Shown piece by piece: positions 9,709-61,881 of a stretch of DNA of 64,000 nucleotides. Source of the stretch: Patescibacteria group bacterium (GTDB lineage: Bacteria > Patescibacteriota > Gracilibacteria > JAHISY01); NCBI GenBank assembly GCA_043812055.1, contig JBDRMN010000058.1, positions 184-64,183 of the forward strand, in the 5' to 3' direction. The translations under genes were made by a program, and so were the position numbers. The stretch's first letter is position 1. Every line of letters begins with the position of its first letter. Below the pieces are notes generated by a model, which searched no databases, was not told where the DNA came from, and saw only the letters and a list, made by a program, of their open reading frames with translations.

Positions 9709-9761
9709 TTGAAGTTTAAAGTACTGAAATCTAGCAAATCGCCCTTTGCTTCTCAAGTTTT

Positions 9762-9770
9762 TGTTAAAAT
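9762..9770 (+). promoter_or_regulatory. Extended -10-like TGTTAAAAT, 8 nt before the gatB ATG
   Basis: TGTTAAAATCCCTCGGT-ATG read directly. Confidence 0.5.
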
Positions 9771-9778
9771 CCCTCGGT

Positions 9779-11209
9779 ATGGAGCTTGAGGCAATCATTG
9801 GTCTCGAAATTCACGCGCAGGTCGCGACGAAGACGAAGATGTTCTGCAGTTGTGACAACGAAGCGTTTGGTGCGGAACCGAACTCGCGAATCTGCCCCAT
9901 CTGCACCGGCCACCCCGGTGTGCTGCCTGTGCCGAACAAGAAAGCGCTTGAGCTTGGCGTCAAAGCAGCTCTGGCACTCGGCTGCGAAATTCCCGAACAT
10001 TCCAAGTTCGACCGAAAGAATTATTTTTACCCCGATCTTCCTTACGGCTACCAGATTTCCCAGTTCGACGAGCCGATTTCAAAGAATGGCAACATCGAAA
10101 TCGAGGTGAATGGTGAACAAAAACAAATTGGGATCACCCGTCTGCACCTGGAAAATGACGCCGGGAAGTTAACACATGCTGGCAATTTTTCTTTCTGTGA
10201 TTACAATCGCGCCGGTACCCCTTTGATGGAAATCGTGAGTGAGCCGGATTTGCGCAGTGCGGAAGAGGCCAGAATTTTTGCGGAAGAAATTCAGCGCATC
10301 CTGCAGTTTGTCGGTTCCAGTAACGCCGACATGTACCGCGGCGAGATGCGTTTCGATGCTTCGGTAAGTCTGCGGGAAAAAGGTTCGACTGAGCTAAACG
10401 CGCGAGCGGAAGTCAAAAACCTGAACTCCTTCAAAGCTCTCGAATCCGCAATCACACATGAGATTGAACGCCAACAGAAACTCTGGGAAGCCGGGCAGCA
10501 ACCGGAAAAAGATTCCACCGTCGGCTGGGACGACGATGCGCAGGAGACTTACCTCATGCGCGAAAAAGAATCCGCCAGCGATTACCGTTACTTCCCTGAA
10601 CCCGATATTCCCCCGCTAGAGATTCCGAAGAAACAAGTCGAGCGGTGGAGGAAAGAGTTACCCGAACTTCCGATCGCCACCCGGGAGAGATTGATCCGAG
10701 AGCATGGTGTGAGTGAACAGGATTCCCAGACTCTCACGAGCTCGAAGGCACTACTTAGTTACTTCGAAAAGGTTGTCGAGGTTTCGGGAGACGCGAAGAA
10801 GTCAGCTGGCTGGGTTTTGTCTGAACTCCTCGCTCGAGTCAAAGAAAATGAAACCTCCATTACAGAACAAAAAATCTCAGCGGAAAATCTGGGTAAACTC
10901 GTGAAACTTATCGCGAGCAACAAAATTTCCGGCAAGATCGGTAAAGAGATTTTCCCGGAGATGTGGGAAACGAATGCGGATCCGGAGAAGATTATTGAAA
11001 GTAAGGGACTGAAACAAATTTCCGACACGGGTGAGATCGAGAAGTTTGTGGAACAAGCCATCGCCAACAATGCCTCCGCAGTTGAAGATTTCAAGAACGG
11101 CAAAGAGAAGGCGCTGGGGCGCATCGTGGGAGAAGTGATGCAGCTCTCGAAGGGCCAGGCGAATCCGGGAATGGTGAATGAGTTGTTGAAGAAAAAACTA
11201 GACAAATGA
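9779..11209 (+). CDS. gatB: Asp/Glu-tRNA amidotransferase subunit B
   Basis: MELEAIIGLEIHAQV..., GYQISQFDEPI, HLENDAGK and a C-terminal GatB/YqeY domain. Confidence 0.92.
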   Translation: MELEAIIGLEIHAQVATKTKMFCSCDNEAFGAEPNSRICPICTGHPGVLPVPNKKALELGVKAALALGCEIPEHSKFDRKNYFYPDLPYGYQISQFDEPISKNGNIEIEVNGEQKQIGITRLHLENDAGKLTHAGNFSFCDYNRAGTPLMEIVSEPDLRSAEEARIFAEEIQRILQFVGSSNADMYRGEMRFDASVSLREKGSTELNARAEVKNLNSFKALESAITHEIERQQKLWEAGQQPEKDSTVGWDDDAQETYLMREKESASDYRYFPEPDIPPLEIPKKQVERWRKELPELPIATRERLIREHGVSEQDSQTLTSSKALLSYFEKVVEVSGDAKKSAGWVLSELLARVKENETSITEQKISAENLGKLVKLIASNKISGKIGKEIFPEMWETNADPEKIIESKGLKQISDTGEIEKFVEQAIANNASAVEDFKNGKEKALGRIVGEVMQLSKGQANPGMVNELLKKKLDK

Positions 11210-11395: not shown

Positions 11396-11443
11396 TTGCT
11401 TGCCCGCCGTAGCTCGAGTGAAACGAAAAGTGAAGGTGGGGGA
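11396..11443 (+). repeat. GC hairpin unit, type B (TTGCCCGCC-GTAG...GAAG-GTGGGGGA)
   Basis: TTGCTTGCCCGCCGTAGCTCGAGTGAAACGAAAAGTGAAGGTGGGGGA. A C-rich arm and a G-rich arm with GTAG/GAAG shoulders. Confidence 0.75.
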
Positions 11444-11811: not shown

Positions 11812-11975
11812 GCAGAATATAGGATTAAGGATATAGAATTAAGGATTAAGAGCCCCTCTTCGCCAAGACTACGAAGATCAAGCCAGGAACCTAAAGACGA
11901 AATAACGAAGTAACGAGGTAACGGAACCAAGAACCAAGAACTGGGAACCAGAGACCACACTAGGTAACCAAATAA
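11812..11975. repeat. Composite intergenic element: GGATTAAG heptamer words, a reverse-oriented type-B hairpin (11853-11881), then AACGAAG/AACCAAG heptamer words
   Basis: Read directly. The same layout occurs at 34725-34925. Confidence 0.8.
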
Positions 11976-12806
11976 CTAATTAACTAATCCCCGGTAAGCC
12001 GTCAGAATTTTTCGCCAGTCCTCAATCTCCAAGTCTTCTGGCCGTTTTTCGAGATTGATTCCAGCGTCTTCCAAGATCTGTTCGGCAACTTCCTTTTTTT
12101 GAGGCAAGCCAGAAGCGAAACTGCCGCGAATCTTTTTGCGAGGAGAATGAAAACCTGCATGCATGATCTGAAAAAAATCAGGTAAATCTTTTTCCGAAAC
12201 GGCAGCTTGTTGCCTGGACACAATCTTGAGAATCGCCGAATCAACTTTCGGTGACGGCAGGAAACTCTCCGCTTTCACAATCTCGACAATCTCAGGATCT
12301 GCGAAGATCTTCACTTCGAGCGCCAGCACGGAAAGTTTCTGGGGATCACAGATTTTCTCCGCTACTTCCCTCTGAACGAGTAGCACAGCCAAGCTGGGTC
12401 GGATCATCGTCTCTACAAAAAACTGGCGCAAGATCGGCGAGGTCAGATAGTACGGAATATTCGCTACCAGCTTGTAGTCTCTTGCAGGGGGTGTGAACTT
12501 GCGCACATCCAGATTCTGCAAATCAACATTCGTGAGCCCTTTTAAGTTTTCCTGAAGAACCGGAAAAATATTGCGGTCGAATTCGAGAGCCGTAACTGCT
12601 CGTGAACGCCCCGCCAATTCACGGGTGAGCGTCCCCACCCCCGCCCCGATCTCGATAACTTCGTCTGAATCTTTCAGCTCAGCAGCATCGACAATCTTCT
12701 GCAAGATTTCCTCGTCAACCAAGAAGTTCTGTCCCAAAGCGTGATCCGGCTTGAGGCTATGCTTTCGCAGAAAGCTTTCGAGCTCTAGAGAGTCACAAAG
12801 TTTCAT
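11976..12806 (-). CDS. rsmA: 16S rRNA (adenine1518/1519-N6)-dimethyltransferase
   Basis: GQNFLVDEEILQKIV and the SAM motif VIEIGAGVGTLT. Confidence 0.9.
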   Translation of the reverse strand: MKLCDSLELESFLRKHSLKPDHALGQNFLVDEEILQKIVDAAELKDSDEVIEIGAGVGTLTRELAGRSRAVTALEFDRNIFPVLQENLKGLTNVDLQNLDVRKFTPPARDYKLVANIPYYLTSPILRQFFVETMIRPSLAVLLVQREVAEKICDPQKLSVLALEVKIFADPEIVEIVKAESFLPSPKVDSAILKIVSRQQAAVSEKDLPDFFQIMHAGFHSPRKKIRGSFASGLPQKKEVAEQILEDAGINLEKRPEDLEIEDWRKILTAYRGLVN

Positions 12807-14699: not shown

Positions 14700-15854
14700 T
14701 TACTTTTTCATCTTCTTCCTGATAAACGCCGGGATCTCCAGCTCCTCATCTGCGGCCTCGGGGGAACGCATCGAACCAGCCGGACGGCCCGCCATAAGGT
14801 TGCGCTTGGCTTGTGCAGCAATGGCGGATTCTTTGCTGAAGCCTGTGGCGATCACGGTAATCTTGATCTCGCCCGTGTAGCTATCGTCGATCACTGCACC
14901 GAAGATGATATTGGCTCCCGGATCAGCGGCGGCAGTAATGACTTTCGCGGCTTCATCCACTTCGAACATCGACAGATCATTACCGCCGGTAATATTGAAA
15001 AGTAAGCCTTTCGCCCCATCAATCTCCTGCTCGAGTAACGGTGAATCAATCGCCGCCCGGGCTGCTTCCACCGCCCGATTCTCGCCGGTACCGTAACCGA
15101 TGCCCATCAGGGCTGAACCGGCATTTTGCATGATATTTCGTACATCCGCGAAGTCGACATTGATCATCCCGTGGACAGTAATCAGATCCGAGATACCCTG
15201 CACACCCTGGCGCAGTACGTCATCGACAACAGTGAAGGCATCGTGGATTGGAGTCTTTTTGTCGATGATCGAAAGAATCTTGTCATTGGGAATCGTGATG
15301 AGAGTATCCACTTTGTCCTTCAGCTCTTCGATCCCCATGTCCGCCCGCTCCCGACGCTTCTCTCCTTCGAAAGCAAACGGTCGCGTTACGACCGCCACAG
15401 TGAGGGCTCCGCTTTCTTTCGCCGCCTCGGCAATCACCGGCGACGCACCCGTACCGGTACCACCACCCATACCACAAGTGATGAAAACCATATCCGCATT
15501 CTCGAAATGAGAACGGATTTCCTCCGAACTCTCTTCGGCCGCCTTTTTGCCCAGAGTCGCGTCCGAGCCAGCCCCCAGTCCCTTCGTCGTACCTTTACCG
15601 ATATTAATCTTTGTCGGAGCGTTATTGTGATAAAGCGCCTGAGCGTCGGTATTGATCGCCACGAAATCAACTCCACTGACCTGAGCCTTGATCATTCGGT
15701 TGATGGCATTGCTGCCCGAACCACCGAGACCAAACACTTTGATCTTGGCCACCGGCGAGATGCCCGGACTCACTTCCTGAGCCGAGGAATCATCGGATTT
15801 CGAGGCTGGCCTGCCACCGAAAAGGTTTTTGAGACTATCAGAAGACATTTGCAT
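14700..15854 (-). CDS. ftsZ: Cell division GTPase FtsZ
   Basis: [20 protein letters not shown] and the C-terminal peptide [10 protein letters not shown]. Confidence 0.95.
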
Positions 15855-21255: not shown

Positions 21256-22032
21256 TCAAACCTCTCTAACGAGCACCCCTTTTTTAGCAAGAAAACTTTT
21301 AATCAATCCAATAGAAGTCTCCTTGAAGTGAAAGATGCTCGCCGCCAACGCCGCCTCTGCGCCCGTCTTCTCAAAAACCTCGACAAAATCCTCCGCCTTC
21401 CCCGCTCCACCACTCGCAATCACCGGAACATTCACCGCTTCGGCAACTGCCTGCGTCAAAGCAATGTCGAAGCCATTCTTCATCCCGTCCGTATCCATCG
21501 ACGTCAGGAGAATTTCCCCGGCACCAAGTTCAACGCCTTTTTTCGCCCACTCCACCGCATCCATCCCGGTCTCCTTCCTTCCTCCGTAAGTCACCACCTC
21601 CCAATTGTTCCCTGTTCCCTGTTCCCTGTTCCCTGTTTTGGCATCAATCGCTAGCACTAAGTTCTGACTTCCAATCGCCCCGGCAATCTCTTTGATCAGT
21701 TCGGGCTTCTCAACAGCGGCAGTATTCACCGAAACCTTATCCGCTCCCGCCTGCAAAATCTTTTTCGCATCCGCAACGGAGCGAATCCCACCGCCGACTG
21801 TAAGGGGAATGAAAACTTGCTTGGCAACTGCTTCAACCATCTCGTAAACGGTTTCCCGCGAATCACTGGAAGCAGTGATGTCGAGAAAACAAAGTTCATC
21901 TGCTCCCTCCGCATCATAGAACTTCGCCAGCTCTACCGGATCACCCGCATCACGAATATTCACAAACTTCTCGCCTTTCACGACACGACCAGCGTCGACA
22001 TCGAGACACGGGATAATTCTCTTAGTTAGCAT
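21256..22032 (-). CDS. hisF: Imidazole glycerol phosphate synthase cyclase subunit
   Basis: [30 protein letters not shown] and [12 protein letters not shown]. Start at the ATG preceded by TGCTAAAAT. Confidence 0.92.
21607..21637. repeat. (GTTCCCT)x4 heptamer tandem repeat inside hisF
   Basis: GTTCCCT at 21607, 21614, 21621 and 21628, plus a partial copy. Encodes [10 protein letters not shown] on the minus strand. Confidence 0.9.
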
Positions 22033-22071: not shown

Positions 22072-23760
22072 ATGGGTTTGAAAAATCTACGCCAGAAAAT
22101 CGATACACTCGACACGGAGCTACTGAAATTGCTCGCTCAGCGGCAAGAAGTAGCGGCGGAAATCGCTGCGGCCAAGAAGGCCTCGGGGAAGAAAGTATTC
22201 GATCCGAAACGGGAAAGACAATTGCTCAAGGAAAAGAAAAAGTTGGCCGAGAGTCTGGGCCTGCCCGTTGCCTACGTGGACAAAATCTTCCAAGTGCTCT
22301 TCCAAAGTTCCCGGGGAGCGCAAACGAGCTACTTCGAATTGGCCGAAAAGCTGAAGCCGCGAAAACTGAGTTATCGTAAAAAAAAAATTAAAACAGGTCT
22401 CAGTCTCCTCGAAATCTTCGCGAGACTAAAGCAAAACTTCGAAACTTGCTTCCTGCTCGAGTCTCTCGGTGAATACGACGACTTCTCCCGCAAAAGTTAC
22501 CTAGGCTTCTCTCCCTACTCCATCATCCAGGCCGAACCGGGAAAATTAATTGTTGATCAGAAAAAATTCGCAACACCGAATCCCTACGAAGCACTCAAAC
22601 TTTTTCTTCCCCGCTTTCCCAAAGGCCCGGGTTTCCGGGGCGGGCTGTTTGGTTACCTGAGTTACGAAGCTACGCGTTACTTCGAGCCCAGTCTGAACTT
22701 CGGGAAGCATCCAGCTTTCCCCGACTTCGAGTTCGGGCTCTACTACGATGGTTTGATCTTCGATAAGAAAACTAAAGAGCTAACTTATTTCTATCTAAGC
22801 AAAGACCGCAGCAAGCTGCTCCAGAAGGTTCTCCGGCAACCACTGAAGAAAGAAAAAGCATTTAAGGCCAAGGCCGCCGGCAATAACCACAGCCAGGCCT
22901 ACTTCGAGAAGGCTGTTCGCGAGGGTAAAAAGGAAATCTTCGCGGGGAACACTTTTCAGTTCGTCATCGGCCGCAAGTATTTCTATAAGCTCTCCGGTGA
23001 CCGTCTAAAATTCTACGAGAAACTCCGCGAGGTGAATCCCAGTCCGCACATGTTCTACCTGCAGTTTGGAAAGAAACTTGCCAAACGACCTGTCCCCCGT
23101 AGTCTTGACGAAGGGGGAAGCTCGCAGAGCGCAGTTCGGGAGCTGATCGGCAGTTCCCCTGAGCTAATTGTCAGAGTCGAGAACGGAGTCGTGGAAAACT
23201 ATCCCCTTGCCGGCACACGGAAAATCACCGGAGATCGTAAAAAAGATCAGCAGCTCGCGAAAGAGTTGCTAGCGGATGAGAAAGAAAAAGCTGAACACAT
23301 GATGCTCGTAGACCTCGGAAGAAATGATGTGGGTAGAGTTTGTAAATTCGGTAGCGTAAAAGTCAGCAAACTCATGGTGATTAAGAAGTTTTCTCACGTC
23401 CAGCACATCGCCAGTGAAATCATCGGCAAGTTACGGAACGACAAAACCGCTTTCGACGCGCTGGCCGCCCAGATGCCGATGGGCACCGTTTCAGGCGCTC
23501 CGAAGATCGAAACAATGAAGATTATCAAACGGCTTGAGCGCGACCCACGGGGTCCCTACGCTGGCGCGGTCGGCTTCTTTAGTCTCGCCGGGGATTGTGT
23601 TTTCGCCGTGAATCTGCGCAGCCTCTTCGCGGCCAACGGCAAAGCGACCATCCAGGCGGGCGCCGGAGTAGTCGCCGATTCGGTTCCGCGGAATGAATTT
23701 AAGGAGGTGGAAAAAAAGGTTCGCGGGGTTATAACCGCACTTAAACAAGCTAGCCACTAG
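22072..23760 (+). CDS. Fusion of AroQ-type chorismate mutase domain with a TrpE/PabB-type chorismate-binding enzyme
   Basis: The N-terminus [30 protein letters not shown]...KRERQLL is AroQ-type chorismate mutase. The C-terminus carries [41 protein letters not shown] and GPYAGAVG. Confidence 0.8.
23091..23118 (+). repeat. Type-B hairpin unit in frame inside the TrpE-like gene
   Basis: TGTCCCCC-GTAG-TCTTGA-CGAA-GGGGGA, translated as [10 protein letters not shown]. Confidence 0.8.
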
Positions 23761-24130: not shown

Positions 24131-24644
24131 TGTCATCCCGGCCGATCCCGAGCCTGTCGAGGGAGAGAGCCGGGACCCAGACAAAATTTCCGCGCAAGCG
24201 GAAATCCAAACAATCAACCCTCGTAAAACTTAAAATACAAATCCTTCCATTCGGGGTTATTCTTTTCTATTAATTCTAGTTTCCACTTTCGCCTCCACTT
24301 CTTAATTTGTTTCTCTCGGGCAATTGCCTCAACTATATCTCCGTGTTCTTCGTAATAAACAAGCTTATTTATCTTATATTTCTTCGCAAATTTACTACCC
24401 TTTCCTTCCCTGTGTTCTCGAACTCTCAAGCCTGGATCATTGGTAACACCAATGTAAAGGGTGCCATTCTTCCTGCTCGCCAAGATATAGACGTAATAGA
24501 TTTTTTCTGTCCACATAGCTGGTAATTCTAAATGTATTAACTAAAACTCAAAAACTTACATGAACTAAAGTTCATGTTTCTGGACCCCTGCTTTCGCAGG
24601 GGATAATCTGGTTTCCCGCTTTCGCGGGAATGACAATGTTTTTA
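24131..24644. mobile_element. Candidate GIY-YIG cassette copy 2 (gene inverted relative to copy 1)
   Basis: Left units at 24131-24182 and 24186-24210. Right units at 24580-24602 and 24608-24635. 24613-24644 is identical to 1575-1606. Confidence 0.55.
24214..24516 (-). CDS. Small GIY-YIG (URI-domain) nuclease, second copy
   Basis: MWTEKIYYVYILASRKNGTLYIGVTNDPGLRVREH...; 84/100 identical to the protein at 1234-1536. Confidence 0.85.
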   Translation of the reverse strand: MWTEKIYYVYILASRKNGTLYIGVTNDPGLRVREHREGKGSKFAKKYKINKLVYYEEHGDIVEAIAREKQIKKWRRKWKLELIEKNNPEWKDLYFKFYEG

Positions 24645-27661: not shown

Positions 27662-27690
27662 GTAGGAACGCCCCGGCGGGGCGTTCCTAC
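27662..27690. terminator. Perfect 13-bp stem, 3-nt loop hairpin between convergent genes
   Basis: GTAGGAACGCCCC-GGC-GGGGCGTTCCTAC. There is no clean U-tract on either side, so a terminator role is inferred only from its position. Confidence 0.5.
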
Positions 27691-29591: not shown

Positions 29592-29597
29592 AGTGTG

Positions 29598-29638
29598 TTT
29601 GTCCGCCGTAGTTCCGAACACGCAGAACGAAGGTGGGA
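29598..29638 (+). repeat. Type-B hairpin unit
   Basis: TTTGTCCGCCGTAGTTCCGAACACGCAGAACGAAGGTGGGA. Shares the exact 15-mer TTGTCCGCCGTAGTT with 50359-50373 inside dnaX. Confidence 0.85.
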
Positions 29639-29647
29639 TGATTGGAT

Positions 29648-29675: not shown

Positions 29676-29733
29676 GCACACCTGTCCCCTAATTTCTGAA
29701 AACTCCTGTTCCCTGAAACCTGTTCCCTGTCCC

Positions 29734-30591
29734 CTAATTTCTAGCCTTATAAAAAATCTTCCCCCGTACCCGCAAATCAATATACTCATAACGCTGACTG
29801 CCAATCCGCAAAACATCCGCCGCTTCGACAAGTTTATTCAGCTGAACCCGGTAGTCCTGAGTAAAATCGAGCCAGACATCGAAATTCTTCTCACTTTTCA
29901 GGTGCAGCTCTCGCGCGACCGGGAAATACTTCACATTGAGCACCCGGAAGTCCGTGAGCGATTCGAAGTAAAACACGGCATCGCGGATAAAGCTCAAGTG
30001 CGTCACTGAAATCACCGGGCGGGTCGGATCCTCCAAATCAACTGTCTCACCCTCGCCGAGATGCAAACGTAAGGTATCCCGATCCGGAGTATCCCCGACG
30101 ACCTGGTGACCGTTTTCGTTGATAAAGACCGACTCCGTACCAATCCGCAGCTCCGCCACAATCGGGAATTTAAAAACCTCCACGGCGATTTCCCGGGGAT
30201 ACTTCTTGCGAATGCGAACGTGTGCGATATCCGGTCGCATCTCTCGTACTGCTGTATCCACCTCCAAGCGGTCGATTGAAAAAATATTTTTACCCAAGAC
30301 CCGCTCACGCACAGCCAGCTCAATTTCCTTGAGGGGTAGATCGAGACTACTACGGGCCACCGAAACTTTCGTAACGTCGAAAAACCCGGAGAAGTGGGTG
30401 AAGCCAATGAGGGCACCCCCCGATATCACGACAATCACGAGAAGGATTTTTTGACGCAGAGTGAGCAAATCCTTTAAGCGTTTCTGTCCCCGAAAAATAC
30501 GCGCTTCGAGATGAGCCTGGCGACGCCGGCGAAAAACCCGTGCCCAGAGCCGCTTAACTCTGCGCTGCCGAAAAGAAGGGACTGGACTCAC
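29734..30591 (-). CDS. ftsQ: FtsQ-like cell division protein (TM plus POTRA)
   Basis: A basic N-terminus, one TM helix, then FFDVTKVSVARSS...LGKNIFSIDRLEV (POTRA_FtsQ pattern). Confidence 0.65.
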   Translation of the reverse strand: MSPVPSFRQRRVKRLWARVFRRRRQAHLEARIFRGQKRLKDLLTLRQKILLVIVVISGGALIGFTHFSGFFDVTKVSVARSSLDLPLKEIELAVRERVLGKNIFSIDRLEVDTAVREMRPDIAHVRIRKKYPREIAVEVFKFPIVAELRIGTESVFINENGHQVVGDTPDRDTLRLHLGEGETVDLEDPTRPVISVTHLSFIRDAVFYFESLTDFRVLNVKYFPVARELHLKSEKNFDVWLDFTQDYRVQLNKLVEAADVLRIGSQRYEYIDLRVRGKIFYKARN

Positions 30592-34724: not shown

Positions 34725-34925
34725 TAGGATTAAGGATACAGGATTAAGAATTAAGAACCCTTCATTGTCGACGCTCCTCAGAGCAAGTAGCTCAGTTCCG
34801 GCGAAAACGAGATAACGATTCGCCAACTAACCAATTAACTAAATAACCAAGTAACCGAACATCCGAACCAGGAACTTAAAGACCAAATCCTAACCACTAA
34901 CTACTAATTACTAACTACTCCCTAC
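34725..34925. repeat. Composite intergenic word element, homologous in layout to 11812-11975
   Basis: GGATTAAGGATACAGGATTAAGAATTAAG (34727-34755), then a hairpin-like segment (34764-34810), then TAACCAA/TAACTAA words. Confidence 0.8.
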
Positions 34926-49919: not shown

Positions 49920-51506
49920 TTACCATCCCTCCTCAAAAAGTTCTTCGGCGGTTTCGACCAGACTCTTTTTCGCCAGTGCCGGACTGCTGGCTGCCGGATC
50001 CGGTGCACTTGATTTTAGTCCGATTTCTGCTCGTTCGACGTCTACCTGGACCGACGTTCCCAATAGTTCTGAAAAAATCTCAGCCAGCCCCGCTCGGGCT
50101 TCTTTACTTTCGAGCTTACCCATCAAAAAATCCGAACCAACCCCTAGCACCACTTTGTCATCTTCGGTACGCAAAACGATACACTCTTTCAAAGCTAGTT
50201 TGATCGCCGACTTCTTGACCTTGGTAATCACCTCAGGCAACGCCGCCTTGGCCGCCTCCAGGCTCAGCCCTTTGGGGGCTTTAACTTCTTTAGCTGGCTG
50301 CGTTTTTGATTTAGCAGGGCTCTTCTTTTCTGAGGTCTCACTCTTTTTACTAGCACCCTTGTCCGCCGTAGTTTCGCCTTGCGGAGCGGAGGCGGATGAA
50401 ACCTGCTTGCCCTGAGCTTGCCGAAGGGTTCCCTGCTTGCCCGCCGAAGCCTTGGCGAAGGCGGGGAACCTGGAACCTGTCACGTCGCTCGCGAGCGACG
50501 TGACCTGAATTACAGCCATCTCCAGCGGCAACTGTGGAATAATCGCATTCTTCAGTTCCTCCCCTGTCCGAGTAAAAACCTCGACAATGGTGAGAACTTC
50601 TTTGGCTTCCGCCAGGCAGTTTTCAGCCACCTTCTCGAGCATGATCTCTCGCAAACGCATCAGGAGATTTTTATTGAATTGAATCAGATTTACCCCCTCG
50701 GCGACCAAACCGTTGATCGTCTCGAGAGCTTCGGGAAGTTTCTGAAAGAGCAGGGCAAAGACAAAATCCTCCACCGCCTGTGGACGGGTCAGCCCGAGAT
50801 TTTGGGCAACTGCCGCTGTGTTAATTTCTCCGGTCTGCCCGAACTGTTCGAGCATCCCCACAGCATCCCGCATGCCTCCGGCCGACTGCTTAGCAATTAG
50901 CTCCAAAGCTTCGGGCTCAGCCTTGATCCCCTCTTTTTCCGCAATCTCCGCCAGGTGTTTGGTGATCTTGGCATTCTCAATCCGGTGAAAATCAAAACGC
51001 TGGGTGCGAGAGAGAACCGTCTCGGGAACTTTGTGAGGTTCGGTGGTAGCAAGGATAAAGTAAGCGTGTCCCGGTGGTTCTTCCAGAGTTTTCAGCAAAG
51101 CGTTGAAGGCTTCCTTGGTCAGCATGTGCGCTTCATCAATCACGTAAACTTTGACCCGCGCCCGCGAAGGGGTGAATTGAATCTTTTCTTTAAGCTCGCG
51201 AATTTCATCGATACCCCGATTGCTCGCTGCATCGATTTCGATCAAATCAACTAAGCGACCATTCAGGGCGTCCACGCAAATCTCACACTCGTTGCAAGGC
51301 TCACCATCCTCGTCTGGATTGAGACAGTTGAGCGAACGGGCGATTATCCGAGCCAGGGAAGTCTTGCCTGTTCCGCGGGTTCCCGCGAAGAGGTAAGCAT
51401 GCGTGAGCCCCTTGTTTTTGAGAGCATTACGAAAAGTCTGTTTGACATGATCTTGCCCTACAATTTCGGCTAATTTCTGCGGTCGGTATTTGCGGTAGAA
51501 ACTCAA
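49920..51506 (-). CDS. dnaX: DNA polymerase III gamma/tau subunit
   Basis: YRPQKLAEIVGQDHV, GTRGTGKTS, a Zn module CxxC...CNECEIC, and VIDEAHML. TTG start. Confidence 0.92.
   Translation of the reverse strand: MSFYRKYRPQKLAEIVGQDHVKQTFRNALKNKGLTHAYLFAGTRGTGKTSLARIIARSLNCLNPDEDGEPCNECEICVDALNGRLVDLIEIDAASNRGIDEIRELKEKIQFTPSRARVKVYVIDEAHMLTKEAFNALLKTLEEPPGHAYFILATTEPHKVPETVLSRTQRFDFHRIENAKITKHLAEIAEKEGIKAEPEALELIAKQSAGGMRDAVGMLEQFGQTGEINTAAVAQNLGLTRPQAVEDFVFALLFQKLPEALETINGLVAEGVNLIQFNKNLLMRLREIMLEKVAENCLAEAKEVLTIVEVFTRTGEELKNAIIPQLPLEMAVIQVTSLASDVTGSRFPAFAKASAGKQGTLRQAQGKQVSSASAPQGETTADKGASKKSETSEKKSPAKSKTQPAKEVKAPKGLSLEAAKAALPEVITKVKKSAIKLALKECIVLRTEDDKVVLGVGSDFLMGKLESKEARAGLAEIFSELLGTSVQVDVERAEIGLKSSAPDPAASSPALAKKSLVETAEELFEEGW
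50358..50504. repeat. Cluster of four GC hairpin units in frame within dnaX
   Basis: Units at 50358-50400 and 50406-50433, a near-palindrome at 50433-50473 (CCCGCCGAAGCCTTGGCGAAGGCGGG) and a perfect 26-nt palindrome at 50479-50504 (GTCACGTCGCTCG/CGAGCGACGTGAC). Confidence 0.85.
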
Positions 51507-52198: not shown

Positions 52199-52897
52199 AT
52201 GCAAGTTCGGTTAAATAAACATCTCGCTGATCTCGGCATTGCTTCCCGTCGCAAAGCGGACGAGTTAATTGCGGACGGACAAGTCAAAGTAAACGGAAAA
52301 ATCGTGCAGGAGCTGGGAACAAAAGTCGATCCGGAGAAAGACAAGGTCACAGTTTCGGAAAAAGTTCTGGCAGAACAAAAAGAGCTCACTTATTATTTAC
52401 TGAATAAACCCCTTGGGTTTGTCACTTCCAGCGCTCCTACTAAAACAGAAAAACAAATCGTGGTGGATTTGCTTCCGCAGAATCCTCGGATCTTTCCCGT
52501 AGGCCGCCTCGACAAAGACACGACCGGCCTGCTCATCCTCACGAATGACGGCGTGCTGGCCTACCGCCTCACCCATCCGAAATTCGAATGTGAGAAAGAG
52601 TACGAAGTAACCGTTGATGCTCCCTTGACCCATGAACGGATCAGAAAAATTGAAGTTGGTGTGAAACTCGAAAGAAAACCGACTCAGACGACCCAGGTAA
52701 AAACCCTCGGTGAGCATAAAGCCCGGATCATTCTTACCGAAGGTAAAAATCGACAGGTGCGTAAAGTTTTTGGCAAAGTCGGCTGCGAGGTCCTGAGTCT
52801 CAAAAGAGTACGGGTGAAAAAACTACTGCTTGGAGATTTACTACCCGGAAAATTTCGCAAACTTACAGATAAAGAAGTTTCTGATCTTAATTCTTAA
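52199..52897 (+). CDS. Pseudouridine synthase, RsuA/RluB family
   Basis: S4 domain (RLNKHLADLGIASRRKADELI) and catalytic GRLDKDTTGLLILTNDG. Confidence 0.85.
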   Translation: MQVRLNKHLADLGIASRRKADELIADGQVKVNGKIVQELGTKVDPEKDKVTVSEKVLAEQKELTYYLLNKPLGFVTSSAPTKTEKQIVVDLLPQNPRIFPVGRLDKDTTGLLILTNDGVLAYRLTHPKFECEKEYEVTVDAPLTHERIRKIEVGVKLERKPTQTTQVKTLGEHKARIILTEGKNRQVRKVFGKVGCEVLSLKRVRVKKLLLGDLLPGKFRKLTDKEVSDLNS

Positions 52898-52922
52898 TCC
52901 TGTATCCTTAATCCTGTATCCT
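52886..52922. repeat. GGATTAAG word array, reverse orientation, overlapping the stop codon of the pseudouridine synthase gene
   Basis: 52886-52914 is the exact reverse complement of 34727-34755 (29 nt). Confidence 0.9.
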
Positions 52923-55204: not shown

Positions 55205-58033
55205 TTATTCACTTTTGTTCTTAAAACCCTTGGTCTGCGCTTCTCGCTGGGCGAGCACTTCCTCAGGGTTGGTAGTGACAATTTGATTTTCCGAATAGCT
55301 CGCAATTACCTGAATCGCCACGTGCTTGTTGTCCGCGAAGAAAAGTCCCTGCCCCATTCCGGAATTCAGCAACATGTATTTCTCTCCGTCAGTGAGGTTG
55401 AAGGTTTTTTGCAGAACATCCATCGAGCTCGGCGCCTGTTTGAGCAGCAGTTGCATCGAGGAGTTGGTCACGATCGGACGACCGTAAGAGCTACCGAGGA
55501 AGTCCTCCACGTCTTGCGTGATTGCCGTAATCCCAAGGTAATACTTGCGAGCCCGCTTTACCAGACCAAAAAGGAATTTGGCAGCATCCTCGTGCTGCAT
55601 CAAAATCCAGGCCTCGTCGACCACGAGCAGGCGTTTCTTCATTTCGCTGCGGACCCGATTCCAGATGTAGTTCAGAATGATGAACATTGCGGTTGGTCGC
55701 AATTCGTCTTCGAGATCACGGATGCAGAAGACCACGACTCCCGAATTCAGATCCACGTTTGTTTCCTTGTTAAAAATTCCCCCAAAAGTTCCGCTCGTGT
55801 ATTTCTGCAAACGTTGGGCAAGATCTTCCGCCCCTTTCGTCGAGCTGAGTACCGAGTGGAAGTCTTCCATCGTCGGCATCGCGACTGAGTTGGGATCCTC
55901 TACTTTCATCGTAATTCCCTTGACCGCGTAAGTATCGATCAAGGCTTTATCGATCAGCGCTTCTTCAGTTGAAGTCATCTTCCCGAGCATCAGCTTCATC
56001 AGGGCAGTGAGGGTAATGACGTTCTCGCGCAAGAGGTCTCCTGGTTTGAGATCATCACCCTCGAAAGGTTTGGGCAAGTCGAAAGGATTGATACGCTGAT
56101 TTGAGTTGAGGGAGACTTGCAAATAGGTTCCGCCCATGGTTTCACAAAGCGCTTCATATTCGTTCTCCGGATCGATCACAATCATGTCCGTGCCAAACAT
56201 CGCTTGGCGTAAAATCTCGAGCTTCACTGCATACGACTTTCCTGCTCCCGAACTCGCAAACACACAGGAATTGGCATTCGGCAAAGCAAAACGGTCAAAG
56301 ATGATGAGTGAATTATTGTGACGATTGAGCCCGTAGAGAATTCCTTCATCCGTTGCCAGTGTCGAGCTCACGAACGGGAAGGTCGTCGAAAGTGGTGAGG
56401 TATTCATATTGCGGTGCACCTCCAGCTCATCCACGCAGATTGGCAGAGTGGAATTAAACGCATGCTCACCCTGGATGTCAGCCCGTTTCGTGAGGACAAG
56501 CTTCCCACCCAGCTGATTCTCGAGCATCTTGGTCGTTGCTTCGAGCTTTTTGAGATCGTCCGCGTAAACCGTGAAATAAAAACCAAACTGGAAGAACTTC
56601 TCCTGACCACGCTGGAGATCAGTCCGTAGTTGTTCCGCGTCCTCAAGTGCAGTCTCGAGCACCGGATCACGCACATTCCCCTTTTCGCGCTGCATGGTGA
56701 TAGAGCTCTGGATCTGCGCTACTTTCTTTTTCAGTATGTGCATAATTTCATCCGAGGAAATCGGATAGATAAATTGCGCCATGTCAACCGTCGCGTCGAA
56801 ATTAATCACCGGACTAAGCCAGTTGGTCTCGAGGAAACGCGGATAGGCGTAAACAAAGAAGCTCCGCATGTAGACACCCGAGAGATTGAGATGATCGTAG
56901 TGAATCTCGAGTGAACTCGGTGAAATCAGGTCCTTCACGCTAGCCAGACCTTGCTGATAAATTCGTTCCGCTTCCACAAACTTTTTCTGTTCAGGGTTCT
57001 TGGTGACTGACTGGCCTGGAGTCGGATAGACAGTTTGCTTAGCCTTTTCGAAGATTTTTCTCAAAAAAGAACCAGTCGCTTTTTGGTTGTGATTGAGATA
57101 CTGCTCAGTAGCAGTTTGGTCTCCGGTCACTTGTGGCTTTCCGGGATTGGCCGGTACTGGTTTCGCAGACACAGCTTTGGTGGCTGCGAAAGTTGGCAGT
57201 TCCTTCGCGCCTGGATTGGCAGCTGAGATTTGTCTGATCGAGACCGCCTGCTTGGACTGAGTAGTTGTGGCAGTGACAGGAGACCCGCTTCGTGGGGCCC
57301 CTTTTGCGGCAACTGCTTGCTGTTTCCGCACTGCGATTGCCGGGCTCTGGGCCGCCAGTTTCGACACAGGCTGCGCATTGCTGGCTGCCTCAATTTCAGC
57401 TGCGGTTTTATTGCGAATGGTTTTTGTGACTACTTTGGCTGCTGTTTGCTTGGGCACCTGAGCCACTTCGGTAACTTCGTTAGGAAGCGGTTTGAAAACT
57501 GTTCCGATTGGGGTCGTTTTTATCTGTTTCTGTTTGCTGGCTGCCTCAATTTCTGCCACAGTTTTGGTCTTAATTACAGTTGCATCTGCAGATTTTAAAT
57601 TCGCTGCAGCCTGTTTTTGGGGAACTGGCGAAAAGCCCTGCTTAGGAGCAGAGACAGCTGCCGGGCTCTGGGCTGCCAGTTTCGACGCAGACTGCGCATT
57701 GCTGGCTGCCTCAATTTCAGCCGTGGTTTTATTGCGAATGGTTTTTGTGACTGCTGCTGCTTGCTTGGGCACCTGAGCCACCTTGGCAACTTCGTTGGGA
57801 AGCGGCTTGAAAGTTACTTCAACTGTGGCCGTTCTTGTCTGCTTCTGTTTGCTCGCTGCCTCGATTTCCGCCGCAGTTTTAACCTTGATTGCGTTTGCGT
57901 TTACAGATTTCACACTTGCTGCAGTCTGTTTTTGAGGAACTGGCGAAGAGCCCTGCTTGGAAGCAGGTACAACTGCCGGAGATGCAGACTGGGCAGTATT
58001 GCGCGGATCGGTCACGGGAGAGTTTTCCGCCAT
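55205..58033 (-). CDS. virB4: VirB4/TrbE-family type IV secretion ATPase with a repetitive N-terminal extension
   Basis: Walker A region CVFASSGAGKSYAV, Walker B LLVVDEAW and ITQDVEDF. The first ~320 aa are Ala/Lys/Gln-rich repeats. Confidence 0.8.
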   Translation of the reverse strand: MAENSPVTDPRNTAQSASPAVVPASKQGSSPVPQKQTAASVKSVNANAIKVKTAAEIEAASKQKQTRTATVEVTFKPLPNEVAKVAQVPKQAAAVTKTIRNKTTAEIEAASNAQSASKLAAQSPAAVSAPKQGFSPVPQKQAAANLKSADATVIKTKTVAEIEAASKQKQIKTTPIGTVFKPLPNEVTEVAQVPKQTAAKVVTKTIRNKTAAEIEAASNAQPVSKLAAQSPAIAVRKQQAVAAKGAPRSGSPVTATTTQSKQAVSIRQISAANPGAKELPTFAATKAVSAKPVPANPGKPQVTGDQTATEQYLNHNQKATGSFLRKIFEKAKQTVYPTPGQSVTKNPEQKKFVEAERIYQQGLASVKDLISPSSLEIHYDHLNLSGVYMRSFFVYAYPRFLETNWLSPVINFDATVDMAQFIYPISSDEIMHILKKKVAQIQSSITMQREKGNVRDPVLETALEDAEQLRTDLQRGQEKFFQFGFYFTVYADDLKKLEATTKMLENQLGGKLVLTKRADIQGEHAFNSTLPICVDELEVHRNMNTSPLSTTFPFVSSTLATDEGILYGLNRHNNSLIIFDRFALPNANSCVFASSGAGKSYAVKLEILRQAMFGTDMIVIDPENEYEALCETMGGTYLQVSLNSNQRINPFDLPKPFEGDDLKPGDLLRENVITLTALMKLMLGKMTSTEEALIDKALIDTYAVKGITMKVEDPNSVAMPTMEDFHSVLSSTKGAEDLAQRLQKYTSGTFGGIFNKETNVDLNSGVVVFCIRDLEDELRPTAMFIILNYIWNRVRSEMKKRLLVVDEAWILMQHEDAAKFLFGLVKRARKYYLGITAITQDVEDFLGSSYGRPIVTNSSMQLLLKQAPSSMDVLQKTFNLTDGEKYMLLNSGMGQGLFFADNKHVAIQVIASYSENQIVTTNPEEVLAQREAQTKGFKNKSE
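57329..57994 (-). repeat. Tandem coding repeat, about 2.1 copies of about 318 bp (105-107 aa)
   Basis: Residues 14-112 and 113-219 align (KQG.SPVPQKQ...KT.AEIEAASKQKQ...FKPLPNEV..VAQVPKQ...TKTIRNKT.AEIEAASNAQ). Confidence 0.85.
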
Positions 58034-59229: not shown

Positions 59230-60408
59230 GTGTCACCAAACACCACACATCGCGTCCTAACGGGTAATGAAGCCGTCGCCCATGCGATGAAGCAGATCAA
59301 TCCTGATGTAGTCGCGGCGTATCCGATCACACCGTCGACGACGATTCCGGAGAAGTTCTCGGAATTTGTCGCCAACGGTGAAGTTGAGACTGAATTCGTC
59401 CCTGTCGAGAGCGAACACTCGGCGCTGTCCGCCTGTATCGGCACAGCTGCTAGTGGCGCCCGCGCAATGACTGCCACCGCCAGCCAAGGTTTGGCTTTAA
59501 TGCACGAAGTGCTTTTCAACGCGAGTGGCTTGCGTTTACCAATCGTGTTAGCAAACGCGAATCGCGCGCTTTCTTCTCCGCTTTCGATTCACGGCGATCA
59601 CGGGGATAGCATGAGTGAGCGTGATACTGGCTGGATTCAGCTCTTCGCGGACTCCCCCCAGGAGGTCTATGACCTGATGGTCCAAAGTTTTCCGATTGCG
59701 GAGAATGAAAAAGTACGCACACCCGTGATGGTCTGTTTCGACGGTTTCGAAACGAGTCATCTAACGACCAACGTGGAAATTTTGAAAGATACGGACGTGC
59801 AGAAATTCATCGGTAAACCAAAAGCTGCTGATTCCCTTTTTGATTTTGAGAATCCGAAAACTTTTGGCGCTTATGCCAATCCCGAATACTTTTTCGAAAT
59901 TCGCCGCGGTCAGCATGAAGGCCTGGAGAATTCACGGAAGACAATCACCGCTGTCGGTAAACAATTCGAGAAAATTTCGAAACGTGACTATGGTAGCCAT
60001 CTGGAAGAGTTCGAAACGCAAGGTGCGGAAATCATCGTCGTGATCATAGGCTCGGCAGTTGGAGCTGTAAAGAAGGCTGTGCAGAAACTGCGGAACCAGG
60101 GCAAAAAAGTTGGGCTGGTCCGCGTCCGAACCTTCCGCCCCTTCCCGGCCGAGGAGATTGGGAAAGCCCTGAAGGGTGCCAAAAATGTTGCCATTCTTGA
60201 CCGCACGATGCCGAGCGGTGCCTTCGGTGGTCCGCTTTTCAACGAGATTAATTCAGCTCTCCATTCTGGAAACTGGAAACTGGAAACTCGCAACTTCGTT
60301 TACGGAATTGGTCAGCGACAGTTCTCCCCGGCCGACGCCGAAGCAGTTTTCCAAAAAACGGCGAGCGGCAAGGCGGAAAAAATTAACTTCGTAAATTTGA
60401 GAGCATGA
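59230..60408 (+). CDS. porA: Pyruvate:ferredoxin oxidoreductase alpha subunit
   Basis: LTGNEAVAHAM...VAAYPITPST...ESEHSA. GTG start. Confidence 0.88.
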   Translation: MSPNTTHRVLTGNEAVAHAMKQINPDVVAAYPITPSTTIPEKFSEFVANGEVETEFVPVESEHSALSACIGTAASGARAMTATASQGLALMHEVLFNASGLRLPIVLANANRALSSPLSIHGDHGDSMSERDTGWIQLFADSPQEVYDLMVQSFPIAENEKVRTPVMVCFDGFETSHLTTNVEILKDTDVQKFIGKPKAADSLFDFENPKTFGAYANPEYFFEIRRGQHEGLENSRKTITAVGKQFEKISKRDYGSHLEEFETQGAEIIVVIIGSAVGAVKKAVQKLRNQGKKVGLVRVRTFRPFPAEEIGKALKGAKNVAILDRTMPSGAFGGPLFNEINSALHSGNWKLETRNFVYGIGQRQFSPADAEAVFQKTASGKAEKINFVNLRA

Positions 60409-60737
60409 TCGCTTACTTAAACATTTTCGCCGCCACCACACTTTTCGTTATTGGTAATTTTCTTTTCAAATCGTGGGCTCTGCGCGACAAGTTGTGGTTG
60501 CTCCTGCTGGGCATCGCCCTCTTCGCGATTGGCAACGCCATCCGCGCCTTCGCGATCAAACAAACCTCACTCTCTGTCGTAATTCCACTCGTGCTTCTCG
60601 TTAACATGGTTGCCGGATTGCTCATCGCCTACTTTTACTTCCACGAGAAACTCAGCACCGTGCAGTACGTCGGCGTCGCCTTCGCCATTGTGTCCATCAT
60701 CCTGATCGCCTTCCCTTTTTCTGCCCTGGCAAAATGA
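60405..60737 (+). CDS. Small 4-TM membrane protein (SMR/EamA-like) embedded in the por operon
   Basis: 110 aa and hydrophobic. There is no Glu in TM1, so it is not a classical EmrE. Its ATG overlaps the porA TGA as ATGA. Confidence 0.5.
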   Translation: MIAYLNIFAATTLFVIGNFLFKSWALRDKLWLLLLGIALFAIGNAIRAFAIKQTSLSVVIPLVLLVNMVAGLLIAYFYFHEKLSTVQYVGVAFAIVSIILIAFPFSALAK

Positions 60738-60937
60738 ATTTCATTGCCAAAATCAAATCTGTAAACCTATGTGAACAATTCTTTAAATCATTGAAAATTA
60801 AAACATTTCCGCCAGAGGCGGATGAGCCTATGGCTCAAAAAATTATTTACTTGTCCTCCGTAGCCCGGAGGGCGAAGGATGGAGAAATTAGAAATTTAAA
60901 ATTAGAAATTCCAACCAAGCATTATTTCAAAAACTGA
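60734..60937 (+). CDS. Doubtful 67-codon ORF spanning repeat filler between the membrane-protein gene and porB
   Basis: It has start/stop overlaps on both sides (ATGA, TGATG). However, its sequence consists of hairpin units (60808-60822, 60824-60836, 60851-60884) and AGAAATT words. Confidence 0.2.
   Translation: MNFIAKIKSVNLCEQFFKSLKIKTFPPEADEPMAQKIIYLSSVARRAKDGEIRNLKLEIPTKHYFKN
60851..60884 (+). repeat. Type-B hairpin unit
   Basis: TTGTCCTCCGTAGCCCGGAGGGCGAAGGATGGAG. Confidence 0.75.
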
Positions 60938-61881
60938 TGACCAACTTTGTTCCAAATCTCAAAACTATAACTAAGAACCCACAAAGGTTGGCGGGGGGCC
61001 ATCGTCTGTGCCCCGGTTGCGGGATTGGATCAATCGTGAAGCAAGTCCTGACTGTCACCACAGACCCAATCGTCGTAGTAACTGCGACTGGATGCCTGGA
61101 GATCTGTACCAGTCCTTATCCCCAGACTAGCTGGCGCACTCCGTGGATTCATTCGCTTTTCGAAAACACTGCTGCTGTTGCGAGTGGTATCGATGCGGCC
61201 CGCAAATCCCTAGAACGCAAGGGTCGGCTTTCTGCCAAACAGGAGAAACTAAAGATTGTCGCTTTCGCCGGTGACGGTGGAACCTACGATATCGGCCTGC
61301 AGGCTCTGAGTGGTGCCATCGAACGTGGCCATGACTTTACTTTCGTGTGTTTAGACAACGAGGGCTACATGAATACCGGCTACCAGCGTTCGAGCGCCTC
61401 ACCGTTCGGAGCGGCTACCACGACTTCGCCGGTAGGGAAGTGCATCCCCGGCAAACAGACTCAGCGCAAAGACATCACTGCCATCGTTGCCGCGCATCGG
61501 ATTCCCTACGTCGCACAAGCTACCCCGGCAAACCACACCGACCTGATGCAAAAGGCTCATAAAGCGATCAATACTCCTGGGCCGGCCTTTTTGAATGTCT
61601 TCTCCCCCTGCCCGACCAACTGGAAATCGGCTCCTGCAGCGGGAATGGAAATCTGCAAGGCTGCTGTCGAGACCAATTTCTGGCCACTTATTGAGGTCGA
61701 GAATGGTAAATGGAAGCTTAACTATCAGCCCAAAGAGCGACAGCTCATTGAAGAATTCTTGAAAGGCCAGAAGCGCTTCCGCCACTTGTTAAAACCAGAA
61801 AACGCCGAACTAAAAGCCGCCTTGCAGAAAGAGGTGGACGAACGCTGGGCTGAGCTTTGTAAACTAGCCGAAATTAGTTAA
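60937..61881 (+). CDS. porB: Pyruvate:ferredoxin oxidoreductase beta subunit (TPP-binding)
   Basis: CPGCG and GDGGTYDIG motifs. Confidence 0.88.
   Translation: MTNFVPNLKTITKNPQRLAGGHRLCPGCGIGSIVKQVLTVTTDPIVVVTATGCLEICTSPYPQTSWRTPWIHSLFENTAAVASGIDAARKSLERKGRLSAKQEKLKIVAFAGDGGTYDIGLQALSGAIERGHDFTFVCLDNEGYMNTGYQRSSASPFGAATTTSPVGKCIPGKQTQRKDITAIVAAHRIPYVAQATPANHTDLMQKAHKAINTPGPAFLNVFSPCPTNWKSAPAAGMEICKAAVETNFWPLIEVENGKWKLNYQPKERQLIEEFLKGQKRFRHLLKPENAELKAALQKEVDERWAELCKLAEIS

Follow-up and report, generated by a model that had tools for sequence, protein, structure and literature searches.

Short palindromic repeats that lie in frame within bacterial genes are already known as Rickettsia palindromic elements (RPEs) and as the intragenic members of the GTAG/CGTC class of repetitive extragenic palindromes (REPs), often in genes for replication and repair (PMC3733652). 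REPs are thought to be moved by REP-associated tyrosine transposases (RAYTs) (Nunvar et al. 2010, PMC2817692). Here we describe such an insert in a 64,000-nucleotide stretch of contig JBDRMN010000058.1 from a Patescibacteria group bacterium (hereafter the window), where a gene for a TrpE-like enzyme carries 63 bases that are missing from its closest orthologue. These bases are very probably two REP-like units, one nested in the other, from a dispersed family of small imperfect palindromes. As a single case, the trpE insert is an ordinary example of a known phenomenon in an unstudied lineage. Its interest is raised by a family structurally conserved across phyla, by nesting within loops, those of classical REPs included, and by the occupation of one codon boundary of trpE in several lineages.

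Like the RPEs (PMC3733652, PMC10969869), the repeats described here are in-frame palindromes within genes for functional proteins, to which they add a surface peptide, and they are also found between genes. Insertion is in frame and the fold is kept: the trpE insert preserves the reading frame, the core of the AlphaFold2 model of the protein is TrpE/PabB-like, and copies in other genomes lie within Pfam domains. RPEs are about 100-150 bp in length and not known outside Rickettsia, whereas the present units are of 30-33 nt, are unrelated in sequence and range from Patescibacteria to Bradyrhizobium and phage contigs.

The resemblance to the GTAG/CGTC REPs (Di Nocera et al. 2013, PMC3733652) is closer. 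Both are imperfect palindromes in the 20-40 bp range with frequent G-T pairs, copies of both may lie downstream of open reading frames (ORFs), both families span several phyla and both have some copies in replication and repair genes (here dnaX, elsewhere GyrB and RecF/SMC); the modular plan of stem, internal mismatch and inner hairpin is shared with GTAG-3 REPs such as those of E. coli. The unpaired GTAG or CGTC end tag that defines REPs is, however, replaced by CTTG, and the G(T/A)AG of the present units is internal rather than terminal, forming half of a 3x3 loop opposite CGAA. The peptides encoded by the units (SLGEGG, YGGQ, ATADK) do not appear in the table of intragenic REPs in PMC3733652, and the unit itself occurs inside the loops of GTAG and CGTC REPs. 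Miniature inverted-repeat transposable elements are likewise small, non-coding, dispersed and sometimes found in genes, but have terminal inverted repeats of 15-30 bp and target-site duplications, both lacking here, and measure 70-300 bp as against a single hairpin of 30-33 nt (PMC3733652). Finally, GCGAAGC is a classic DNA mini-hairpin of great stability (PMC13037366). The junction found most often in the family reads GCGA^AGC, as do the loops of its host REPs, and the unit holds two C-G(A/T)A-G motifs, although the mini-hairpin (GCGNAGC/GCGAAGC) is a structural motif rather than a repeat family and its link to the insertion site is suggested by junction counts.

The host gene (Table 1) encodes an N-terminal chorismate mutase domain of type II followed by both domains of component I of anthranilate/aminodeoxychorismate synthase (Pfam scan: CM_2, residues 6-84; Anth_synt_I_N, 111-238; Chorismate_bind, 275-549). 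The last two domains and the fold of solved structures are the features of the TrpE/PabB class, and the protein matches Sulfolobus TrpE (PDB 1qdl) with an E-value of 3e-77. The insert lies between MFYLQFGKK and ELIGSSPE. Here 1qdl runs on directly from residue 218 to residue 219 (..KFDEK, then YLIGSSPE), leaving residues 336-356 of the query unmatched; the alignment with B. subtilis PabB has its gap here too. The closest orthologue (protein P0002, locus L001; 541 aa) is 95% identical over the aligned protein and 86% identical at the nucleotide level and has no insert, the DNA alignment showing one clean gap of 63 nt (23077-23139). A preliminary description of this DNA had proposed about 22 extra codons between TrpE motifs and an alignment of orthologues to examine them; the insert is real and its boundaries are clean, but the count is 21.

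Relatives of the window protein are labelled Gracilibacteria, Peregrinibacteria or Peribacteraceae and are mostly 541 aa long. P0002 is found on five contigs from several samples; the exact window protein is known from one contig alone, as it would be if the insert were an assembly or chimera artefact of a metagenome-assembled genome. That explanation is barely credible, given that the insert is in frame, that orthologous sequence is collinear on both flanks and that homologous inserts are present at the same site in five independent assemblies.

An AlphaFold2 model of the protein, made from an alignment of 31 sequences, has a mean pLDDT (predicted local distance difference test) of 86. Modelling had been proposed in the preliminary description to see whether the insert lies on a surface loop; it maps to a low-confidence loop, with pLDDT under 50 for residues 335-353, that joins beta-strands 326-332 and 356-361. 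Elsewhere the model can be superposed on structures of TrpE and PabB (Foldseek template-modelling scores of 0.82-0.87, target-normalised; 1qdl 0.87). The insert is therefore predicted by the model to be a disordered excursion at a beta-hairpin turn, the kind of site that tolerates extra residues.

The 63 bases resolve into a young unit nested within an old and decayed one. The two hairpin stretches had been transcribed correctly in the preliminary description, as TGTCCCCC-GTAG-TCTTGA-CGAA-GGGGGA at 23091-23118 and AGCTC...GAGCT at 23119-23144. The letters of the second are present, but its GAGCT is made up of the conserved Glu-Leu codons; AGCTC...GAGCT thus pairs the old unit with host codons, so that only part of it belongs to the insert, and this part of the old unit has an inner hairpin of its own (Table 1). 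The inner unit, of 30 nt, is near-canonical: 25 of its 30 bases agree with the cross-phylum consensus, its outer stem is TCCCCC/GGGGGA and its junction with the host sequence, CGA^AGC, is the most frequent of the family. When 23089-23118 is removed, the remainder reads CTTG-C-CAAAC-GAAG-CTCGCAGAG-CGCA-GTTCG-G, a member of the 33-nt class with decayed outer arms, in which about 7 of the 33 bases depart from the consensus (hand count). It is around 70% identical, by a base count made by hand, to the 33-nt insert of an orthologue (L004), and its inner hairpin CTCGCAGAG recurs in copies from other genomes (L048, L107 and L007:4942).

Further copies were first found with an nhmmer profile and then with a simple pattern. 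The plan that emerged is CTTG-[YCCNCC]-G(T/A)AG-[variable short hairpin]-CGAA-[GGNGGR]: a CTTG tag, kept constant in the search pattern, is followed by an outer stem of 6 bp (YCCNCC/GGNGGR), a symmetric internal loop with three bases on either side (G-T/A-A against G-A-A) and a short variable hairpin at the apex. The GAAG form is frequent beside GTAG, as in one dnaX copy of the window (50434) and many foreign copies. Searched with this pattern, with one genome taken per species, more than 119 contigs matched, their hosts including many Patescibacteria lineages, Verrucomicrobiota, Acidobacteriota, Planctomycetota, Bacteroidota, Bradyrhizobium, Gammaproteobacteria, Elusimicrobia and others. In the viral contigs of IMG/VR there were 73 matching stretches, against 2 for the complement pattern used as a composition-matched control. 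The length distribution of the matches has sharp peaks at 29 and 32 nt, equivalent to 30 and 33 nt with the paired R base.

Evidence for the structure comes from the stem. Among the listed foreign matches, the Y-R pair (which the pattern does not fully fix) is T-A in 77, C-G in 34 and something else in 8, and the middle stem pair is GC in 65, TA in 20, AT in 5 and GT in 13, with 14 non-pairs. The covariation score of a 48-sequence alignment was reached by none of 500 shuffles, and sliding the partner column abolishes the pairing. Stem wobbles are G-T 13 times and A-C 3 times, which indicates that it is the written strand whose pairing counts, be it in RNA or in single-stranded DNA.

To look for the family within the window we used a covariance model, R1, built solely from 48 copies of other genomes and run with filters off. 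R1 finds seven sites scoring 18.7-52.5 bits, the best other match scoring 13 bits; its E-values are rough, the calibration having been short, but the gap in scores is clear. The window thus holds seven short, dispersed imperfect palindromes of 30-46 nt in 64 kb at E <= 0.003 (Table 1). Four of the seven are intergenic and three of these lie downstream of, and in sense to, a gene. Their terminal tags are CTTG, CCTG or TTTG. Six of the seven are on the plus strand; GC skew shows no switch across the window and so provides no link between this bias and replication. Outside the window, R1 recognises the trpE insert of another orthologue (L008), and L001, L005 and L007 yield matches in spacers or elsewhere.

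Table 1 Features of the trpE insert, its host gene and the related copies in the window
Feature	Position	Strand	Basis
Host gene, chorismate mutase (CM_2)-TrpE/PabB-type fusion, 562 aa	22072..23760	+	Pfam, PDB sequence matches, AlphaFold2 model
Whole in-frame insert, 63 nt, 21 codons	23077..23139	+	Exact gap in DNA alignment with L001/P0002; missing from solved TrpE structures
Outer, older 33-nt unit, 5' part (CTTGCCAAACGA), split by inner unit	23077..23088	+	Remainder after removal of inner unit
Inner, young 30-nt unit, CCTG-T-CCCCC-GTAG-TCTTGA-CGAA-GGGGG-A	23089..23118	+	R1 match 23087-23120
Outer unit, 3' part (AGCTCGCAGAGCGCAGTTCGG), with inner hairpin GCTC-GCA-GAGC at 23120-23130	23119..23139	+	
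trpE copy	23087-23120	+	R1 37.8 bits, E 1.2e-8
Canonical 30-nt copy in dnaX, read on minus strand as PAFAKASAGK	50434..50467	+	R1 52.5 bits, E 8.5e-13
Copy in dnaX (minus-strand gene), 39-nt unit, translated from antisense strand	50356..50398	+	R1 30.9 bits, E 1e-6
Intergenic copy about 190 nt downstream of gatB (9746-11209, +), sense, G-T wobble in outer stem	11397..11442	+	R1 30.5 bits, E 1.3e-6; Pfam GatB
Intergenic copy between EamA-like gene (60405-60737, +) and TPP-enzyme gene (60937-61881, +), sense	60848..60885	+	R1 26.7 bits, E 1.6e-5; Pfam
Intergenic copy between thioredoxin (-) and POTRA/FtsQ-like gene (-), antisense to both	29596..29639	+	R1 23.7 bits, E 1.2e-4; Pfam
Intergenic copy about 90 nt downstream of rRNA adenine dimethylase gene (11976-12806, -), sense	11856..11884	-	R1 18.7 bits, E 0.003; Pfam

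A core shared between the trpE insert and a reverse-oriented intergenic unit had been noticed in the preliminary description, and this holds: the 16-mer CGTAGTCTTGNCGAAG occurs exactly twice in the window, at 23098 (+) and 11858 (-), where none is expected from 100 dinucleotide-preserving shuffles, and the intergenic site is itself an R1 match. The same two units have in common an inner variant, GTAG-TCTTGR-CGAAG, that was found in only one of 89 foreign copies, which we count in favour of copying within this genome. The likeness could have proved insignificant in a proper search; instead the independently built model is significant for both the intergenic and the dnaX units. A likeness between RSLDEGG in the TrpE-like protein and an RRSLGEGG reading of the dnaX units had also been remarked upon. 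The units are indeed related, but RRSLGEGG belongs to a plus-strand frame that is not used: dnaX lies on the minus strand and for this reason DnaX reads them as PAFAKASAGK. They lie in the linker that follows domain III, the Pfam domains ending before residue 300.

These results bear on the simplest alternative, an ordinary lineage-specific extension of a loop by slippage or small insertions and deletions, with a chance likeness to other GC-rich hairpins. The site is a variable loop in the clade, the folding energy is unexceptional and the same gene has a second hot spot with unrelated short palindromes, all of which such an extension would accommodate. It is nevertheless strongly disfavoured, the insert being recognised by an independent model at E ~1e-8, sharing an exact 16-mer with the site at 11858 where no such match is expected and having edges that coincide with unit boundaries defined from other phyla.

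The codon boundary occupied in the window is occupied in other lineages also. Inserts are present here in five further sampled orthologues, three of 42 nt (P0004, P0007 and P0010), one of 33 nt (P0014) and one of 81 nt (P0016), and the other filled relatives were found to carry hairpin DNA of the same family, rather than extra residues without such DNA. Three pairs of filled and empty sisters can be compared at the DNA level (window/L001, L004/L263 and L005/L262), the empty sister having no unit in each case. The extra DNA opens with CTTG or CCTG immediately after the second codon past Phe-Gly, closes with an Arg codon before GAR-YT (Glu-Leu) and shows no duplication beyond an ambiguity of 1-2 nt. 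The difference between L004 and L263 is exactly one 33-nt unit, whose frame-1 translation lies near the consensus peptide, RSSKSE being common to the two. That the boundaries of these insertions or deletions in trpE are the unit boundaries defined from other phyla shows that the unit enters or leaves whole. A metagenome scan for further trpE alleles returned six close relatives, which were on the contig of L005, carried a filled allele like that of P0016 or were empty, with no new kind of insert.

How many times the boundary was entered is another matter. On a neighbour-joining tree built with the insert columns masked, filled alleles stand next to empty ones at four places, a pattern that takes about four gains plus a single loss or, with a single gain, some eight exact losses. 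It is possible, if on balance doubtful, that there was one ancient insertion in an ancestor of the Peregrinibacteria/Gracilibacteria-like lineages, followed by vertical descent, divergence into forms of 33, 42 and 81 nt and precise later losses in many lineages, the closest relative among them; the window lineage would then have acquired nothing new but the inner 30-nt unit. Every insert has the same orientation and the same codon boundary; the outer unit of the window and the L004 unit are both 33 nt long, share CTCG-N-AGAG and are about 70% identical, near the divergence of the genes; the 42-nt forms of L005 (clade A) and L006 (clade B) are about 71% identical; and the outer unit, some 7 of 33 positions away from the consensus, appears older than the split between P0002 and the window protein (P0001). 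Set against this are the roughly eight independent losses, each of which must return to exactly 541 aa, the occurrence of three states (empty, 33 nt and 42 nt) in one tight clade, and the L008 copy, whose CCTCC/GGAGG arms are intact and which seems younger and of separate origin. This last copy scores with R1 and has a different inner hairpin, favouring at least some independent hits. Under either history, the process behind gain and loss of the trpE insert is precise.

The family is not confined to trpE or to this clade. In low-GC genomes, where ORF calls are reliable and to which the analysis of copies within ORFs was confined, ten long ORFs with canonical copies were scanned and all are real housekeeping genes, encoding an HsdM methylase, a pyridine-nucleotide disulphide oxidoreductase (Pyr_redox_2), a class I aminoacyl-tRNA synthetase, SerRS, GluRS, RlmN, RecF/SMC, DnaJ, GyrB and a glycosyltransferase. 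The copy lies within the Pfam domain envelope in half of them (HsdM, the oxidoreductase, the class I synthetase, GluRS and RlmN). Copy length is a multiple of three in 18 of 20 copies within ORFs, as against 14 of 24 outside them, and the 30-nt consensus is open in five of six frames, or in all six when W is A.

Another reading is that the units act in cis as RNA under selection, for instance by forming or stabilising 3' ends, by marking sites of processing or by making translation pause, and are kept for that function and not as selfish DNA. The excess of G-T over A-C wobbles in the stems would fit, as would the sense orientation of three of the four intergenic window copies relative to the preceding gene. 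One phage contig (L149) has the unit on the strand of a capsid gene, about 50 nt downstream of it. In the convergent spacer between a pyruvyl-transferase-like gene and an acetyltransferase gene, the window has a perfect GC hairpin, AGGAACGCCCC-GGC-GGGGCGTTCCT (27664-27688), where L001 has a canonical unit (15493-15526; 52.9 bits), and this may be a functional replacement at a 3' end. However, across about 120 foreign copies, judged by crude ORF calls, gene orientation is random: 34 copies within ORFs are sense and 39 antisense, and intergenic copies have their upstream gene on the same strand in 21 cases and on the opposite strand in 23, which argues against a general role at the RNA level. 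The dnaX copies and the copy at 29596 are antisense to transcription, the closest orthologue manages without the trpE copy and there is no match to an Rfam family even at E <= 1. An RNA element is, in our judgement, improbable.

The positions at which units are found suggest a preference for exposed loops of the CGN^AGC kind. Across 192 copies, CGA^AGC is the most frequent junction (18 copies) and CGN^AGC accounts for 26. Units nested within other units lie in a CGN^AGC loop in L103, L104, L125 and the window trpE, and in an apical TTT^AGC loop in L041 and L086. Two kinds of REP in Bradyrhizobium, one GTAG-tagged (GTAGGGTGGGCAAAGCGA^AGCGTGCCCACC) and one CGTC-tagged (CGTCATTGCGAGCGAAGCGA^AGCAATCC), have the unit in their GCGA^AGC loops, and empty versions of both host REPs exist among the fetched loci. 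The REP-plus-unit loci (L027, L100, L114 and L121; L055, L096, L102, L115, L123 and L190) may correspond to the 'long loop' REP variants of PMC3733652.

On this reading of the extra bases of trpE, an older 33-nt unit sits exactly between the codons for FG-x-x and ELIGSSPE and a younger 30-nt unit later landed in the CGA^AG loop of the first. Since the common unit sizes are multiples of three and the frames mostly open, a copy arriving in a tolerant loop would simply be translated; in trpE the outcome would be a disordered excursion of 21 residues at a beta-hairpin turn, with the enzyme core unchanged. The units may be, or may once have been, mobile as single-stranded hairpins, the enzyme responsible presumably being supplied in trans. 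A broader proposal, which we put forward only tentatively and consider unlikely as it stands, is that they represent a pan-bacterial, frame-neutral mobile mini-hairpin that integrates into single-stranded C-GNA-G/GCGA^AGC loops (those of its own copies and of GTAG/CGTC REPs included), owes its movement to a widely conserved enzyme of host or phage, not to a transposase of its own, and acts as a general source of disordered loops in housekeeping proteins, especially in streamlined Patescibacteria.

Several observations weigh against this account of nested, once-mobile units. No mobilising enzyme or transposase was found within the 64-kb window, in which no search for RAYTs was made, and the units have neither target-site duplications nor terminal inverted repeats. 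Across clades, the trpE inserts share one orientation and one bond and are partly alike, which also fits a single ancient insertion. Their target junctions (AGA^GAA, AAG^GAG and CGA^GAA, or RRR^GAR) only resemble CGN^AGC, most junctions of the family differ from CGN^AGC, and the Bradyrhizobium composites could have spread as wholes rather than through repeated hits. Filled and empty intergenic sites could not be compared between the window and L001, the closest genome, the spacers being too divergent to align. Folding energies in trpE are close to those of shuffled sequences (z = -0.15 for 80 nt as RNA; z = -1.0 for the 38-nt first hairpin as DNA), and because these scores are insignificant the claim of structure rests on covariation across copies and not on stability. 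When the ORFs around about 190 copies were clustered all against all, the recurrent neighbours were modules of phage capsid and portal genes, together with a small number of orthologous loci, and no recurrent enzyme was among them.

The nesting of two units of different age, the occupation of the boundary in several lineages, the spread over many phyla and the reading of the dnaX units from the opposite strand all go beyond the preliminary description. The finding explains an odd 21-residue loop in TrpE without recourse to a new function and cautions against taking RSLDEGG-like peptides as motifs. A family with open frames also yields spurious ORFs and low-complexity segments (SLGEGG, SFAKATADK, SYGGQA) in many genomes, which a model of the R1 type could mask. 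In trpE itself, which encodes an enzyme of essential type, repeats drive the gain and loss of a loop at a single codon boundary, and this in several bacterial lineages whose genomes are very small. Should mobility and the targeting of loops prove true, a 30-nt element of many phyla and phages, nested in REPs, would bear on how REP-like sequences spread where no RAYT is evident.

Searches of existing resources gave little. At gathering score, Rfam 15 reports one tRNA and nothing else in the window, with chance-level matches alone around the insert, and none of 18 foreign loci has a match at gathering score, nor any of 4 loci at E <= 1. In the part of the literature covered, no description of a CTTG-tagged family was found, and queries with sequence strings returned unrelated primers. 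BLAST of the consensus against the plasmids of PLSDB gave three weak Rhizobium matches without annotation. Several named structures and elements were considered and rejected: a kink-turn (there is no 3-nt bulge followed by GA), an archaeal bulge-helix-bulge intron (the loops face each other and are not staggered), a sarcin-ricin loop (stem covariation fixes the symmetric 3x3 register), a CRISPR repeat (there are no arrays) and an IS91-type CTTG target (nested copies place CTTG within the unit). Many of the IMG/VR matches fall into two groups of related phages (L130, L139-L141, L149, L158, L159 and L165; L133, L166, L174, L185, L190, L193 and L195), beside capsid or portal genes (Phage_capsid_4, Phage_portal_2, SU10 portal, major capsid protein).

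Within the window, the TrpE-like fusion adjoins hisF and hisI and not trp genes, and both this neighbourhood and the chorismate mutase-TrpE architecture are kept across Peregrinibacteria/Gracilibacteria-like relatives (L001 and L004-L008). The second hot spot for insertions and deletions in this enzyme lies between GKLIVD and KxFATPNPY (columns 193-200 of alignment A1), where four scattered orthologues have 7-8 extra codons. In the two analysed as DNA, L005 and L008, other short palindromes (TCCCGC-AAAC-GCGGGA and ACCTGCAGGT) encode the extra codons, and not the CTTG-tagged family in reverse orientation. Two small GIY-YIG nuclease genes (1213-1536, +; 24214-24516, -), one of them a near neighbour of trpE, sit in a 428-nt inverted repeat that is 78% identical (1158-1585 and 24165-24592). 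A hairpin, TTCCCGC-TTTC-GCGGGAA, lies beside each gene (1575-1592 and 24613-24630) and the inverted repeat may be a mobile cassette.

The DnaX linker (50340-50510; dnaX 49920-51506, minus strand) is largely repeat DNA, all of it translated opposite to the units. In addition to the two copies of Table 1 it holds a weak third unit (50404-50430; 10.5 bits) and a perfect palindrome of 26 nt, GTCACGTCGCTCGCGAGCGACGTGAC, at 50479-50504 (DNA fold z = -4.7). AT-rich intergenic repeats with a period of 7-8 nt (GGATTAAG.., TGTTCCC.., GAACC..) occur in both orientations, often flanking hairpin units, at 11814-11851, 34726-34756, 52885-52922, 21606-21653, 29707-29740 and in other spacers. At 57338-57979, inside an ORF of 942 aa (55205-58033, minus strand), repeats of about 157 and 315 nt stand in tandem, with identities of 81-94%.

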